Part shown: positions 5,687 to 10,280 of the stretch, one piece after another
Layout of the letters: the number at the start of each line of letters is the position of its first letter
How positions within the stretch are numbered: the stretch's first letter is position 1
Assembly (NCBI GenBank): GCA_000092065.1
Contig: CP000586.1
Strand: one strand, 5' to 3'
Length of the DNA: 64,000 nt
Source of the DNA: Ostreococcus lucimarinus
Taxonomy: Eukaryota
Position numbers and translations under genes: made by a program
Notes under the pieces: generated by a model
Databases searched by the model: none
Told to the model about the DNA's origin: nothing
The model's input: the letters and a program-made list of their open reading frames with translations, nothing else

Positions 5687-8600
5687 CTACACGAGACGCC
5701 GGAACGCGAATTTCAGACTGGTGGCGCACGTCGAGGACGTCTTCGTCAACCGGATTTGGAAAAACATGTCCATGTTGGCTGTTCTCCCCGTTCGAATTGT
5801 TCGTAGCTCGAAAAAGTTGCCGCTGCTCGCGTGACCAGCTTGATGGAGACGAACAACGTTTGCGCTATTGTCGTTTGTTTGTCCGTCGTACCAGGAGATG
5901 ATGCCGGTCGCAAGTTCGGACCAGAGCCCGCCGCCGCACGAGTCGTTTGTGGTCGTGGGCAGAATTTGTACAACAAAGCTCCCGCCAGAATCGTCCGCCA
6001 TGTCCAAAGCGTGATTGAAACCCCAGATATTTTGCCAGGACGTGGTAAGTGTGAGATCTACCTCGAGCAGTTTCACTCTGTCGACGGCTGTTCCGATAAT
6101 GTTTGCCGGAATATGCATGCTCGACGACGCCTGCGCGGGAAACACGCGACGGAACCAGATGTGAAACGTCTGCCGTGAGTCAAGATCTTCGTTCGTGAGG
6201 AGCTGCAATCTGAGGTTCGTGCCAGCTGTGCGCCACGATCGCTTCGTTCGAAGCTTTATATACTTGTTATTTTGGCCGTGGCCCGATGCATGTAGTTGGA
6301 TCTCGTTGGCGTCATCCGAGTTCGTTCCAGAACCGTACCAAGACATCAAACCGACGTAAGACACGTGCCACAAATTTCCGCCGTTCCCGTGAGTGGATAC
6401 GTGCGCGATCTGAACGAAATAAGAGCCCGTGGACAGATGATCACCGTGTATACCCGTGTCCACCCACTCGTTGGGGACGGTTGATACGCTGACCGGAAAA
6501 TGCGACAAATCGTCCATTTCGTTCTTCGGAGGAATGCCGCCGCTTGGATGTGTCCTCTGAGGATTGGGCATAACGCGGCGGAACTTAAAAATGTACTGAG
6601 CGATATTTTTTGTCGTCCCTCCATCCACCTTCGCTTGTAATCGCAAAAGACCTTGGTCTGATCTCAAACTTTCGAGCGTTCGAAGACGGACTCGTTGACC
6701 ATTTGACGCGTGTCCGGATGCGTGAAGCTCTATTTCACTCACTTGATTGCCGTTCGTATTTTGAGCGTACCAACTCATCAAACCCGTATAAAATTCGATC
6801 CAGTTGCCACCGCCATTCGAGTGTGTGTTGACGTTGTAAATCTCTACGACATATGAACCATGTACGAGGTCGATACCGATCACGCCGGTATCGACCCAAT
6901 CATTCTTCAAGTGGAACGTCGCCGTACGAGAGAAGATGTCGCCAACGGGATCTTTCCGGTCGCTGTTGAGTCCAGAAAATGATAACTTAAACTCTTGCAC
7001 CAAGCTCTGAGAGGCCGATGGAACAGAAATCGGCTCCGGCGTTGTGAACTGGCACGCTGGACTGCACGACGGCTTGGTTGTACTTTGAGGCGCTGAGCAG
7101 GCGTGGAAGAGCTCTTTCTCGAGAAAGTACCCGTCGCTGCTATATGCCTCGCCGATAAGTGGTTCAAAGTCGAAGAGAGTTATCACTGGATCCATCCCTA
7201 GGGGCGGCTCATTTTCAGTCGGAAGCGGTTTGAGAACGACCGTGGCTCCGACGACCGTCTTCGGGATCTGCACGTACGCGCCTGCGCCCAGTGCGCTGCG
7301 TTGACACTGATTCTTCGTGTTTGACGCGTAATCCCAGTTTGTCCACATCGCGGTAAGCGATTCGGGCCCTGCGTGACAAGTTGCGCCTGATTGTTCGATC
7401 TGGAAAAACGCGTCGAAACCAGTGTAGACGTCTTGTTGCGCTGCAATTTCAGGCCCCGCGCAAACGACACCAGCGCAAAGTGCCACCCACGCATGGTCAA
7501 GTGACGCCACAGCGCCGACTTGCAAGCCAGCAATACCTCGCGCATCAAGAGAGCTGGTTGACGACACCCGAGGCTCGCCGAATCTGACAAAATTCTGCCC
7601 TTGTCCGGCCCCGAACGAAACCGTGATTGGAAATTCAACGTCCACTTGGAAATCGTAAGTTCCTGCGACTTCGGCTCGAAAGTAGTAGGGAAGACGAAAG
7701 TCTGCTTCGTAGTCCATGGCGATGAACAAACCAGGAGCGATTGCAGTAACTTTAGTTCCAGTGAGAGCGTCGTCACGCTCGAAAAACTCGCTAAGTAGTT
7801 CTCCTTCACGAAACGAAAGCTGGGCTACCTCGATGCCGAGGGAGAAACTGTACTTGAGCGTGGTCGAAGCTTGGATTCTCACATCCTTCATGTCGTTTAA
7901 CGCCGCGATGAGATCGGTGCGGAAATCGTTGAAAACTTCTTCAAACGTATCGCCACCCAGCGCAGCCTCGCCGCGCGCTCGCGCGGATGCCACACCCAGT
8001 TGGCTCGTCATCTTTGATTTGAATCCGTCGCCAGAGTTGAAAATATCGTGCAGAACGATGAGCTCTTCATAGAAGACGCGTTCCTTCGAAGATAAATCTT
8101 GCTTGAGCTCGGTCAAAAGGGCGTGCTGATCGTCGCTGAGAAGTTTTCTTCCAGTAATTTGCTCACCAAAATTTTCAATCTGCTGAACGACTCCCTTGAC
8201 ACCGGAGGCTTCGTATACGGCGTCGAACATAGCATCAAACATTCCCAAGAACGCTTGAATCACCTTCACAGCGACGCTAGGCGGGATGTCAAACTTGTCG
8301 AGCGTTTGACACAGCGCAATCGTGAATTTGGGGGTACGGATATTCAAATTGTTCGGCGAGTACGGATTATCGGACGCGAACTTGTCCGGCCACGGCATGG
8401 GAGGGGATGGACTTTCAACGTCCGACCAAAGTTGTGTCGGAATCTCGTGACAAAATCCAAACACACGTCCGAGCGCGGCGGTGTCAGAATGTATTTCCTC
8501 AACTCTCGAGTTTTCGATGAGCTCCTCGCCGGCAAACGCTCTGCGTAAGTTTTCTCGAAGATGCGCGAGGAACGCGGCCCGGTCAGCGCCGTCTTTTCCC

Positions 8601-9361
8601 CGCGCAGAGCCGAGAGTGGCGGCTGAAGATCCACCCATGACGTCGTCGAGAGCCCCTTGAATCATGCTCAAGAGTGAGTCTGCGCTCAGGTTCAACCAAG
8701 GATCCCACACCATCCCGAGCAGCCCCTTCAGTTTGTCCGGCAAGCCTCGGGCGATGTCCGGCAGCGCGAGCACCGCGTCGACGACGTCATCGAGCGCGTC
8801 GCAAACCTTGGAGTTCGAACCGATCAACTCGCACGCCGCCGTCTTCACCGTTTCGATCGACGCCGTCGGGCTCGACAGCGCGTCGACGACCCCCTTCACG
8901 CCGCAGTACGAATATCCATCGATCGCCGGCAGGTTGATGGGCACGTCAATATTCGCGTTCGGCATATCCACGTTCACCGAGTTTCCTCCGACACTCACGC
9001 ACTTCTTCATCACGCACTTCTTCACCTTCGGCAGTTGCACTCTAACCTGCGAGCCGTACACGTCGTGCAGCGACGTCTTGAACATCACCTCCGACTCCGG
9101 GCACGAGATCGCCGGCAGGTTGAACGCGCCCAGCGTCGCCGCGTCCGCGCGCGCGCGCGTCGCCGGCGCCGTCGCGAGGAACAGCGGCGAGAGGTCACCG
9201 CGTCCGCCGCGCGCGAGGCATCCGACGAGGCATCCCGCGGCGAAGGCGAGCGCGACGCCGCGCGTGACGCGTCGACCGGCGCCGCGCGCGAGGAGGGCGT
9301 CGGACGCGTCGTCGATTTCCGCGTCGTCGCCGACGGGCGCGGCGCCGTACGACGCGCGCAT
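5687..9361 (-). CDS. Large (1224 aa) signal-anchored or secreted protein of unknown function with three tandem C-terminal beta-rich repeats of about 120-150 aa
   Basis: Single uninterrupted ORF. N-terminal hydrophobic anchor GVALAFAAGCLVGCLA after a 34-aa Arg-containing leader. Many Cys. The last ~412 aa are three copies of the module W.DTG..G..L..GSY.VQI....THxNGG.LW......GLMSWY.....N.....I.LHASGH......L.RT..........L.L.......F.I.FRRV. No confident match to a named family. Confidence 0.6.
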   Translation of the reverse strand: MRASYGAAPVGDDAEIDDASDALLARGAGRRVTRGVALAFAAGCLVGCLARGGRGDLSPLFLATAPATRARADAATLGAFNLPAISCPESEVMFKTSLHDVYGSQVRVQLPKVKKCVMKKCVSVGGNSVNVDMPNANIDVPINLPAIDGYSYCGVKGVVDALSSPTASIETVKTAACELIGSNSKVCDALDDVVDAVLALPDIARGLPDKLKGLLGMVWDPWLNLSADSLLSMIQGALDDVMGGSSAATLGSARGKDGADRAAFLAHLRENLRRAFAGEELIENSRVEEIHSDTAALGRVFGFCHEIPTQLWSDVESPSPPMPWPDKFASDNPYSPNNLNIRTPKFTIALCQTLDKFDIPPSVAVKVIQAFLGMFDAMFDAVYEASGVKGVVQQIENFGEQITGRKLLSDDQHALLTELKQDLSSKERVFYEELIVLHDIFNSGDGFKSKMTSQLGVASARARGEAALGGDTFEEVFNDFRTDLIAALNDMKDVRIQASTTLKYSFSLGIEVAQLSFREGELLSEFFERDDALTGTKVTAIAPGLFIAMDYEADFRLPYYFRAEVAGTYDFQVDVEFPITVSFGAGQGQNFVRFGEPRVSSTSSLDARGIAGLQVGAVASLDHAWVALCAGVVCAGPEIAAQQDVYTGFDAFFQIEQSGATCHAGPESLTAMWTNWDYASNTKNQCQRSALGAGAYVQIPKTVVGATVVLKPLPTENEPPLGMDPVITLFDFEPLIGEAYSSDGYFLEKELFHACSAPQSTTKPSCSPACQFTTPEPISVPSASQSLVQEFKLSFSGLNSDRKDPVGDIFSRTATFHLKNDWVDTGVIGIDLVHGSYVVEIYNVNTHSNGGGNWIEFYTGLMSWYAQNTNGNQVSEIELHASGHASNGQRVRLRTLESLRSDQGLLRLQAKVDGGTTKNIAQYIFKFRRVMPNPQRTHPSGGIPPKNEMDDLSHFPVSVSTVPNEWVDTGIHGDHLSTGSYFVQIAHVSTHGNGGNLWHVSYVGLMSWYGSGTNSDDANEIQLHASGHGQNNKYIKLRTKRSWRTAGTNLRLQLLTNEDLDSRQTFHIWFRRVFPAQASSSMHIPANIIGTAVDRVKLLEVDLTLTTSWQNIWGFNHALDMADDSGGSFVVQILPTTTNDSCGGGLWSELATGIISWYDGQTNDNSANVVRLHQAGHASSGNFFELRTIRTGRTANMDMFFQIRLTKTSSTCATSLKFAFRRLV

Positions 9362-9410
9362 GGACGCGCGCGATTATGCCACGCACGCGCGCCACGCATG
9401 CGCGCCACTC

Positions 9411-10280
9411 ATGCGCGCGGCGCGACGCCTGCCCGCCCGCGCCCGCGTCGCGACCGCGTCGGCGTCGGCGTCAACGTCGTCGACGCCGCGCGCGCGCCGC
9501 GCGATGGACGTCCTGCAGTTCCCCGCGCTCGGCGACAATTACGGATTCGCGGTGCGGTGTCGGAAAACGAAAACCGTCGCGCTCGTCGACGCGCCGGACG
9601 AGGGCGCGATCGCGCGCGCGCTGTCGAGCGCGGGATGGGAATCGCCGTCGATGATTCTGAACACGCATCATCACCGGGACCACGTCGGGGCGAACGGGGG
9701 GGTGCGGGCGCGGTTTCCGGACGCGCGCGTCGTCGTCGTGGCGCCGCGCCGCGAGGCGGAGAAAATCGGAGACGTCGACGTCGCGGTGGAGGAGGGGGAC
9801 GTGGTGGAGATCGGTGACGTCAGGGCGACGGTGCGAGAGACGCCGGGACACACGCTGGGACACGTGGTGTATCACTTTGAGGAGGAGAAGAAGGTCTTCG
9901 TGGGGGACACGATGTTCGCGCTGGGATGCGGGAGGTTGTTCGAGGGGACGCCGGCGATGATGTGGGCGTCGATGCAGAAGCTATTGGCGATGTCGGACGA
10001 TACGCAGGTTTACTGCGCACACGAATACACGCAGAGCAACGCGAAGTTTGCGCTGAGCGTCGATCCGACGAACGAAGCGCTGCGCGCTCGCGCTCGGGAA
10101 ATCGACGCGCTCCGGGCGAAAGGGGAGCCGACGGTACCGACGACGATTGGATTGGAGCGTCTGACGAATCCGTTTTGCCGACCGGATAGCGCCGGCGTGC
10201 AAAACGGTGTGAACATGCTAGGCTCGAGCGATCTCGCCGCCGTGTTCGGGGCGGTGCGTAGCGCAAAGGACAACTTCTGA
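9411..10280 (+). CDS. GLO2: Hydroxyacylglutathione hydrolase (glyoxalase II) with organellar presequence
   Basis: THHHRDHVGAN, GHTLGHVVYHF, FVGDTMFALGCGRLFEGT and YCAHEYTQSNAKFA align along the whole length of human HAGH. Start taken at ATG 9411 (MRAARRLPARA presequence), alternative ATG 9504 (MDVLQF). The upstream part of ORF 8664..10280 overlaps the opposite-strand gene and is rejected. Confidence 0.85.
   Translation: MRAARRLPARARVATASASASTSSTPRARRAMDVLQFPALGDNYGFAVRCRKTKTVALVDAPDEGAIARALSSAGWESPSMILNTHHHRDHVGANGGVRARFPDARVVVVAPRREAEKIGDVDVAVEEGDVVEIGDVRATVRETPGHTLGHVVYHFEEEKKVFVGDTMFALGCGRLFEGTPAMMWASMQKLLAMSDDTQVYCAHEYTQSNAKFALSVDPTNEALRARAREIDALRAKGEPTVPTTIGLERLTNPFCRPDSAGVQNGVNMLGSSDLAAVFGAVRSAKDNF

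Follow-up and report, generated by a model that had tools for sequence, protein, structure and literature searches.

Alternating beta-strands and phage tail-fibre-like knobs in a large, predicted membrane-anchored protein of Ostreococcus lucimarinus

Introduction

Whether long runs of alternating hydrophobic and polar residues betray the membrane hairpins of a pore-forming toxin or the strands of an ordinary structural sheet is the question raised by a gene in the stretch of Ostreococcus lucimarinus DNA analysed here (64,000 nucleotides of contig CP000586.1, assembly GCA_000092065.1; hereafter the window). An earlier note, made from the letters of the sequence, had singled out two such stretches near the middle of the encoded protein and proposed that they refold into membrane-spanning beta-hairpins, as in aerolysin, ETX/MTX and MACPF-type proteins. 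The gene is the following:

5687..9361, minus strand: whole gene, a single exon encoding a protein of 1224 amino acids (aa), identical to XP_001418488.1 / UniProt A4RZ06 (O. lucimarinus CCE9901)

Its database annotation is limited to 'predicted protein', and a literature search by accession for this protein and its O. tauri orthologue found no citing paper. The analysis shows that the two reported stretches are not a special pair; they are simply two among eight or more long amphipathic strands. The explanation that we favour, and to which about an even chance is given, is that of a membrane-anchored surface recognition or adhesion protein whose alternation stems from a structural sheet with two faces.

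The alternating stretches and their conservation

Both peptides lie where they had been reported. Their positions, together with that of the longest strictly alternating run, are:

7811..7855, minus strand: reported segment 1, KYSFSLGIEVAQLSF, aa 503-517; first meander strand (aa 495-512) and next short strand
7577..7627, minus strand: reported segment 2, ITVSFGAGQGQNFVRFG, aa 579-595; end of a strand, a polar turn that is a lineage-specific insertion, and the start of the return strand
7604..7660, minus strand: 19-residue strict alternation run TYDFQVDVEFPITVSFGAG, aa 568-586; faces Y F V V F I V F versus T D Q D E P T S

The alternation is above chance and conserved, but the strictness that the earlier note saw in it does not hold throughout either segment. 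Segment 1 belongs to a strict 12-residue run (aa 501-512) that is followed by a one-residue register slip at V512/A513. Segment 2 takes in more than a single strand: it spans the last 7-8 residues of the 19-residue run, a polar Gly/Gln turn and the start of the return strand, FVRF. The description of the stretches as Gly/Ser-rich stands for the closest Ostreococcus relatives only: the segment-2 turn GAGQGQN is an insertion of ~4 residues common only to them, and distant members have a shorter and different polar turn (for example SKNPS, DDGEP or ENGQAG).

Alternating runs of modest length occur often; in a protein of this size, chance should yield about nine with at least seven residues, and a chance or compositional artefact without structural meaning was considered on that ground. 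The observed number of runs of this length is 18 (9.3 +/- 2.9 expected). Four runs reach at least 11 residues where shuffling yields 0.55 (P = 0.002), and the longest run has 19 residues, where shuffled sequences average 10.5 (P = 0.003). Column by column, the hydrophobic/polar periodicity persists in 33 family members, down to 21% identity, and two independent structural models predict strands at these runs. Conserved periodicity and shuffle statistics already refute the chance explanation, which is left with hardly any probability at all.

Alternation spans at least eight strands of 10-21 residues. In the three sharpest of them an aromatic-rich face opposes a charged one (IATLYFLIV/RQSTKSSGE, LIMYAFLYFA/FADEDRPYR and YFVVFIVF/TDQDEPTS), the polar faces being rich in D, E, R and K, and the later strands are rich in Ala, Gly and Val on both faces. 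A two-faced sheet produces by itself an alternating hydrophobic/polar pattern, and such a pattern alone cannot single out toxin hairpins, as any two-faced sheet yields it.

Predicted structure of the central module

The strands belong to a conserved module of ~600 aa (aa 196-790 here) in which long helices are followed by a strand meander. It was modelled with AlphaFold2 twice: as a whole, with an alignment of 33 sequences (predicted local distance difference test, pLDDT, 74.3; predicted template modelling score, pTM, 0.65), and as the beta-domain alone (aa 490-780), with 36 sequences (pLDDT 80.4, pTM 0.70). The strands agree between the two models, and the reported stretches appear as beta-hairpin strands in both, in line with the earlier description. 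The parts of the module are:

7883..8776, minus strand: helical half, aa 196-493; seven long helices with inserted strands aa 303-308 and 339-358; MPWPxK, GR(R/K)LLS and Cys304/Cys351 conserved
7397..7879, minus strand: beta-meander, aa 495-655; antiparallel strands, each 10-21 residues long, with turns of mostly 2-3 residues between them; holds both reported segments
7670..7693, minus strand: LPYYFRAE, aa 557-564; among the most conserved motifs of the family, within a strand
7451..7480, minus strand: LCAGVVCAGP, aa 628-637; consensus LCxGxVCxGP, tip of hairpin aa 611-630 / 633-653, the longest one
6992..7291, minus strand: end of the module, aa 691-790; two further strands (GxGxYxQxPKT), then a short helix with more strands, and a tail rich in Cys (C755, C766, C770)

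In the predicted order, three long helices precede the strands aa 303-308 and 339-358, after which four or five long helices (aa 361-493) lead into the antiparallel meander, whose strands are aa 495-512, 516-521, 533-542, 545-556, 558-563, 567-583, 591-594, 598-607, 611-630 and 633-653. Further strands (aa 691-700, 703-712 and 745-755) lie beyond a Cys-containing loop. The placement of strands 303-308 and 339-358 between helices argues, as far as the models go, for one integrated alpha/beta domain. When the helices are absent from the model, segment 1 has a pLDDT below 50, a drop in confidence that is consistent with segment 1 packing on them.

On these grounds the favoured explanation, also the simplest one for the data as a whole, can be stated structurally. 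At least eight long amphipathic strands would form a large, curved antiparallel meander sheet within an alpha+beta ectodomain module of ~600 aa (aa 196-790); its aromatic-rich hydrophobic face would pack on the long helices of the module itself, and its charged face would look towards the solvent. The module is conserved in the motifs MPWPxK, GR(R/K)LLS, LPYYFRAE, LQxG, LCxGxVCxGP, QDVYxGxDAF, DWDY and GxGxYxQxPKT, and several of its Cys positions are invariant or nearly so. The best conserved of these motifs (LPYYFRAE, LCxGxVCxGP, QDVYxGxDAF, DWDY and GxGxYxQxPKT) lie in or between strands; along with the conserved Cys, this is what a rigid extracellular core typically shows.

No motif of the family varies less than LCxGxVCxGP. 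Of its two Cys, Cys634 never changes and Cys629 hardly ever does; the prediction places them opposite each other across the strands, and they may form a disulfide. Between the two Cys the members carry only hydrophobic or small residues (AGVV, VLFV, WAGLV, LIGML). The outline of this tip is like that of a disulfide-stapled membrane-insertion or fusion loop; equally, it may be a buried interface.

Comparison with pore-forming proteins

The assignment of the stretches to an aerolysin/ETX/MTX/MACPF-like hairpin pair found no backing at any level. The target protein matched zero Pfam families at E <= 1, and no family recurred among 33 module sequences at E <= 10, with aerolysin, ETX_MTX2 and MACPF absent. 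The motifs of MACPF/CDC proteins ([YW]G[TS]H[FY]...GG and the ECTG undecapeptide) were scanned for in the protein and none was detected. Sequence and profile searches of PDB chains with the module and the beta-domain returned nothing, and Foldseek against the PDB gave nothing at E <= 0.001, its top entry being the pleurotolysin pore (E 0.06, template modelling (TM) score 0.06, probability 0.06). Across Pfam, PDB profiles and Foldseek, neither the protein nor its relatives matched an enzyme or toxin family. The structure prediction and fold comparison proposed in the earlier note has thus yielded long hairpins and no significant aerolysin or MACPF match in the PDB. This outcome does no more than remove the positive evidence for a membrane-inserting role, which keeps a small probability.

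The non-significant Foldseek list is led by pore-state beta-pore-forming toxins (PlyB, MAC, perforin-2, LukGH and aerolysin). This enrichment was rejected as evidence: the TM-scores are ~0.06, the probabilities are < 0.1, and long regular hairpins look locally alike.

The comparison of architectures points in the same direction. Aerolysin and ETX-MTX2 proteins resemble the present one in their long amphipathic beta-hairpins, beta-rich elongated body and, sometimes, lectin-like targeting domains. The module differs from them in its large helical half, its at least eight alternating strands, its non-conserved Ser/Thr flanks and the membrane anchor of the protein; the elongated twisted sheets with an insertion hairpin packed on their side, proper to the aerolysin-type fold, were not found. 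MACPF/CDC proteins (perforin, C9, pleurotolysin B, perforin-2) likewise combine helices with long strands. In their monomers the future membrane hairpins are alpha-helical, whereas the present segments are already strands in the monomer model, and the central bent four-stranded sheet with two refolding helical clusters was not recovered in the module. The amphipathic hairpin aa 567-607 does have a Ser/Thr-rich return strand (VSSTSS) in O. lucimarinus; neither this flank nor the turn is kept family-wide, and seven other strands alternate as well.

A membrane-active module of a new family, either pore-former or fusogen-like inserter, was nevertheless weighed. By one route, the distal binding modules would bind a target and the hairpins would leave the helices to assemble a membrane-spanning beta-barrel; by another, the two-Cys tip LCxGxVCxGP would insert like a fusion loop. 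The conserved long amphipathic hairpins speak for it, as do the pore-state toxins that dominate the non-significant Foldseek list, the layout of a targeting module plus a body, which resembles lectin-linked toxins, and the existence of membrane-anchored pore-formers such as perforin-2/MPEG1. It is further favoured by the most invariant element of the family, a hydrophobic hairpin tip between two Cys, which is more interesting in this respect than the reported stretches. These points are opposed by the zero sequence or fold matches to pore-forming or fusogen families (Foldseek TM ~0.06, probability < 0.1), by an alternation over at least eight strands that a two-faced sheet accounts for, by the many charged residues of the polar faces, and by the poor conservation of the turn and Ser/Thr-rich flank of segment 2. 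The membrane hairpins of toxins are usually among their most variable parts, unlike the highly conserved strand motifs of this family. The protein is moreover predicted to be membrane-anchored and not secreted free, which argues against a special hairpin pair. On balance a membrane-active module appears distinctly unlikely. A concrete version, in which the protein is anchored in the membrane of the alga and aimed by phage-derived knobs or lectins so that its hairpins or two-Cys tip insert into a target membrane, must be judged less probable again; the target could be a bacterium, a gamete or the envelope of a virus.

Comparison with lipid-binding folds

The best weak structural matches of the module are the walls of outer-membrane barrels and the open sheets of lipovitellin and MTP, these two being the best that are not barrels. 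They suggest another alternative, in which the curved sheet and the amphipathic helices would enclose a hydrophobic cavity for a lipid or other hydrophobic ligand, as in large lipid transfer proteins (LLTP) or helix-grip and lipocalin-like folds. MTP has the highest query TM-score of the Foldseek list (0.12), and other weak matches are also binders of hydrophobic ligands: KshA, which has a helix-grip fold, Aster-C, a LolA-like protein, and VtrC, a binder of bile salts. Against it, all the scores for lipovitellin and MTP are below usual significance, with identities of 2-10%, and the present protein is set apart from them by its size, the order of its domains, its membrane anchor and its distal knobs. 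Pfam gave no match of any kind to the protein and its relatives, and the LLTP domain profiles of Pfam (vitellogenin/MTP) were unmatched in the protein and 33 relatives. A lipid-binding module is considered doubtful.

Putative membrane anchor, tail and N-terminal region

The N-terminal part of the protein precedes the module and contains:

9209..9262, minus strand: hydrophobic segment, aa 34-51; the sole helix-length hydrophobic segment outside the beta domain
8777..9124, minus strand: small Cys-containing N-terminal ectodomain region, aa 80-195; not kept family-wide

The first 33 residues form a charged tail that begins MRASYGA, and the hydrophobic segment that follows is a putative type II signal anchor. 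Most of the 27 full-length relatives checked have their anchor likewise at the N-terminus, as a single transmembrane-like segment. Three relatives are anchored C-terminally instead and end in YGA[CSF] (YGAC, YGASC, YGAFD); among these, P0059 begins with a signal-peptide-like hydrophobic stretch, and the other two have a hydrophobic segment at aa ~23-55.

The YGA motif itself (aa 3-5 of the target, within SYGA; window 9347-9355, minus strand) recurs at the termini of P0004, P0050, P0053-P0057, P0059 and P0062. Its position tracks that of the anchor, being N-terminal in the N-anchored members and at the extreme C-terminus in the C-anchored ones. YGA is best understood as a cytosolic tail motif, in which case the bulk of the protein would be ectodomain; it could serve as a sorting signal.

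A second short motif, [AS]-x-L-G, mostly in the form (S/A)-A-x-L-G-(A/S/G), occurs seven times in the target versus 1.6 expected, its sites including aa 75, 248, 295, 453, 466 and 689. All relatives checked (P0050-P0081) have an excess of it, 2-8-fold and mostly 4-8-fold, and its sites lie at aligned positions directly after the membrane anchor and between predicted segments. These may be processing or shedding sites, or a structural cap.

The C-terminal knob repeats

The distal end of the protein is made of three tandem repeats:

6569..6931, minus strand: knob repeat 1, aa 811-931; a homologue of the C-terminal tip of phage tail fibres
6140..6496, minus strand: knob repeat 2, aa 956-1074; a further homologue of this tip
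5690..6073, minus strand: knob repeat 3, aa 1097-1224; the protein ends FAFRRLV, a phage fibre FEFRRLI

The knobs match PHROG 22284 with E = 1.1e-32, in three stretches that fall on profile positions 1138-1235 of 1236, and PHROG 32072 with E = 1.9e-30. The match covers the whole tip including the terminal FRRL[IV], and places the repeats in the phage tail-fibre tip domain (PHROG 22284/32072). In tblastn searches with the repeats, tail-fibre genes of Vibrio and Alteromonas phages were matched. Each repeat (~120 aa) aligns to the last ~110 aa of the tail fiber YP_008125992.1 of Alteromonas phage AD45-P1; 18 columns show no variation among the three repeats and the phage tip, and the FRRL[VI] ending is common to all. 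A PDB sequence and profile search with the knobs found no solved structure. The suggestion that the triplicated C-terminal modules are binding-like is borne out by this homology, the receptor binding of phage tail-fibre tips being taken from the annotation of the records. As for the proposed lectin-plus-pore-former layout, its binding half can be retained in the form of phage tail-fibre tips, while its pore-former half was unsupported by every test run.

The arrangement differs from that of the phages in that three tandem copies occur here in a nuclear eukaryotic membrane protein, whereas the phage has one at the end of a trimeric fibre. The knob domain is also found in small bacterial proteins of ~200 aa. 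The three copies in a nuclear algal gene, the last of them ending in FRRLV as phage fibres end in FRRLI, suggest that the domain was exchanged between the alga and marine phages or bacteria. One stand-alone knob protein of 195 aa (L005, 4001-4588, on a 211-kb bacterial-looking metagenome contig) lies between two large RHS-repeat genes, one of which has a weak Tae4 match, and about a dozen similar knob proteins of ~200-220 aa occur on contigs of up to 34 kb.

The distal modules vary within the family. Two members (P0054 and P0061) have, instead of knobs, weak matches to ricin-B lectins that are below the Pfam cut-offs.

A proposed surface recognition or adhesion protein

A membrane anchor combined with variable distal binding modules makes the family look like surface recognition or adhesion proteins. 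Its members would share a short cytosolic tail, a single-pass anchor, the conserved module and, distally, binding modules that vary. In the present protein a glycan or surface ligand would be recognised by the knobs, with the central module serving as a rigid scaffold that disulfides perhaps staple together. The data show the sequence features, their conservation, the predicted secondary structure, the lack of a match to any known family and the homology of the knobs; the buried face, the disulfides, the topology and the function of the protein are in this account what we infer from models and sequence.

Several points weigh against this assignment. The burial of the hydrophobic face under the helices is no more than a deduction. 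The alignments contain few sequences (33-36), and the models place only moderate confidence in the segment-2 hairpin (pLDDT 59-71), less than in any other part of the sheet. The function is assigned wholly on architecture. The weak structural neighbours, membrane barrels and lipid-cavity sheets, would fit a membrane- or lipid-binding role equally, and a pure scaffold role leaves the hydrophobic two-Cys hairpin tip unexplained.

Ostreococcus is a naked picoalga that must depend on surface proteins in its encounters with viruses, bacteria and possible mates, and we know of no characterised Ostreococcus surface protein. The family described here is a candidate for such a role. The protein couples three copies of a phage receptor-binding tip to an alpha+beta domain that is so far undescribed. 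If this central domain is purely a scaffold, it represents a new extracellular domain family, along with a phage-type adhesin module in a eukaryote; if it were membrane-active, it would stand for a new class of pore-former or fusogen.

Family and range

A word-indexed homologue search returned five clusters. With a beta-domain profile, the word-indexed search gave 5 fragments, and with a knob profile 15 proteins. An exhaustive profile search of 1.84 billion cluster representatives retrieved 49 proteins at E <= 1e-3, 24 of these at E <= 1e-30. The named members are all from Ostreococcus: the O. tauri orthologue XP_003079940.2, the O. tauri paralogue XP_003082227.2 and a protein of Ostreococcus sp. 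RCC789. Orthologues measure 1189-1225 aa, and O. tauri has at least two paralogues. The rest of the family consists of metagenome proteins, of which one distant member checked sits on a gene-dense contig, and some relatives have an extra repeat-rich, possibly coiled-coil stalk. With about 49 sequence clusters, the family is without a Pfam entry, a solved relative or a mention found in the literature search; the module is an undescribed alpha+beta domain, in a family known so far from Ostreococcus and metagenomes alone. A search of IMG/VR viral contigs with the module gave zero relatives, so that, at that sensitivity, a viral origin of the central module does not appear.

Several names attached to the family or to Ostreococcus were examined in passing. 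JGI/IMG labels read 'gas vesicle protein' on the cluster of the O. tauri paralogue and 'FliH' or 'CwlO-like' on distant members; they look like automatic mis-annotations of helical, repeat-rich stretches, with zero profile matches behind any name. The JGI label 'putative transposon-encoded protein' on the target cluster was dropped for want of support: the gene is flanked by ordinary housekeeping genes whose order is conserved. A paper on polymorphic toxins (PMC3482391) was set aside, as it names Ostreococcus only through its viruses.

Genomic context

The window is nuclear DNA of O. lucimarinus, with a G+C content of 61%. Its open reading frames (ORFs) are long, single-exon and tightly packed, and they encode eukaryotic housekeeping proteins such as RPAP1, a DHX29-like helicase, Nup192, MTR4 and an RRM protein; the target is the sole member of its family within the window. 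A 99%-identical copy of the gene occurs on a 165-kb metagenome contig with the same gene order. A 538-aa ORF (8664-10280, plus strand) overlaps the 5' end of the target gene. On contig L001, which is syntenic, a gene for a glyoxalase II-like protein of 289 aa (Lactamase_B/HAGH_C) is confined to the part upstream of the target, between the target and RPAP1, and the 538-aa ORF is probably an over-extended reading.

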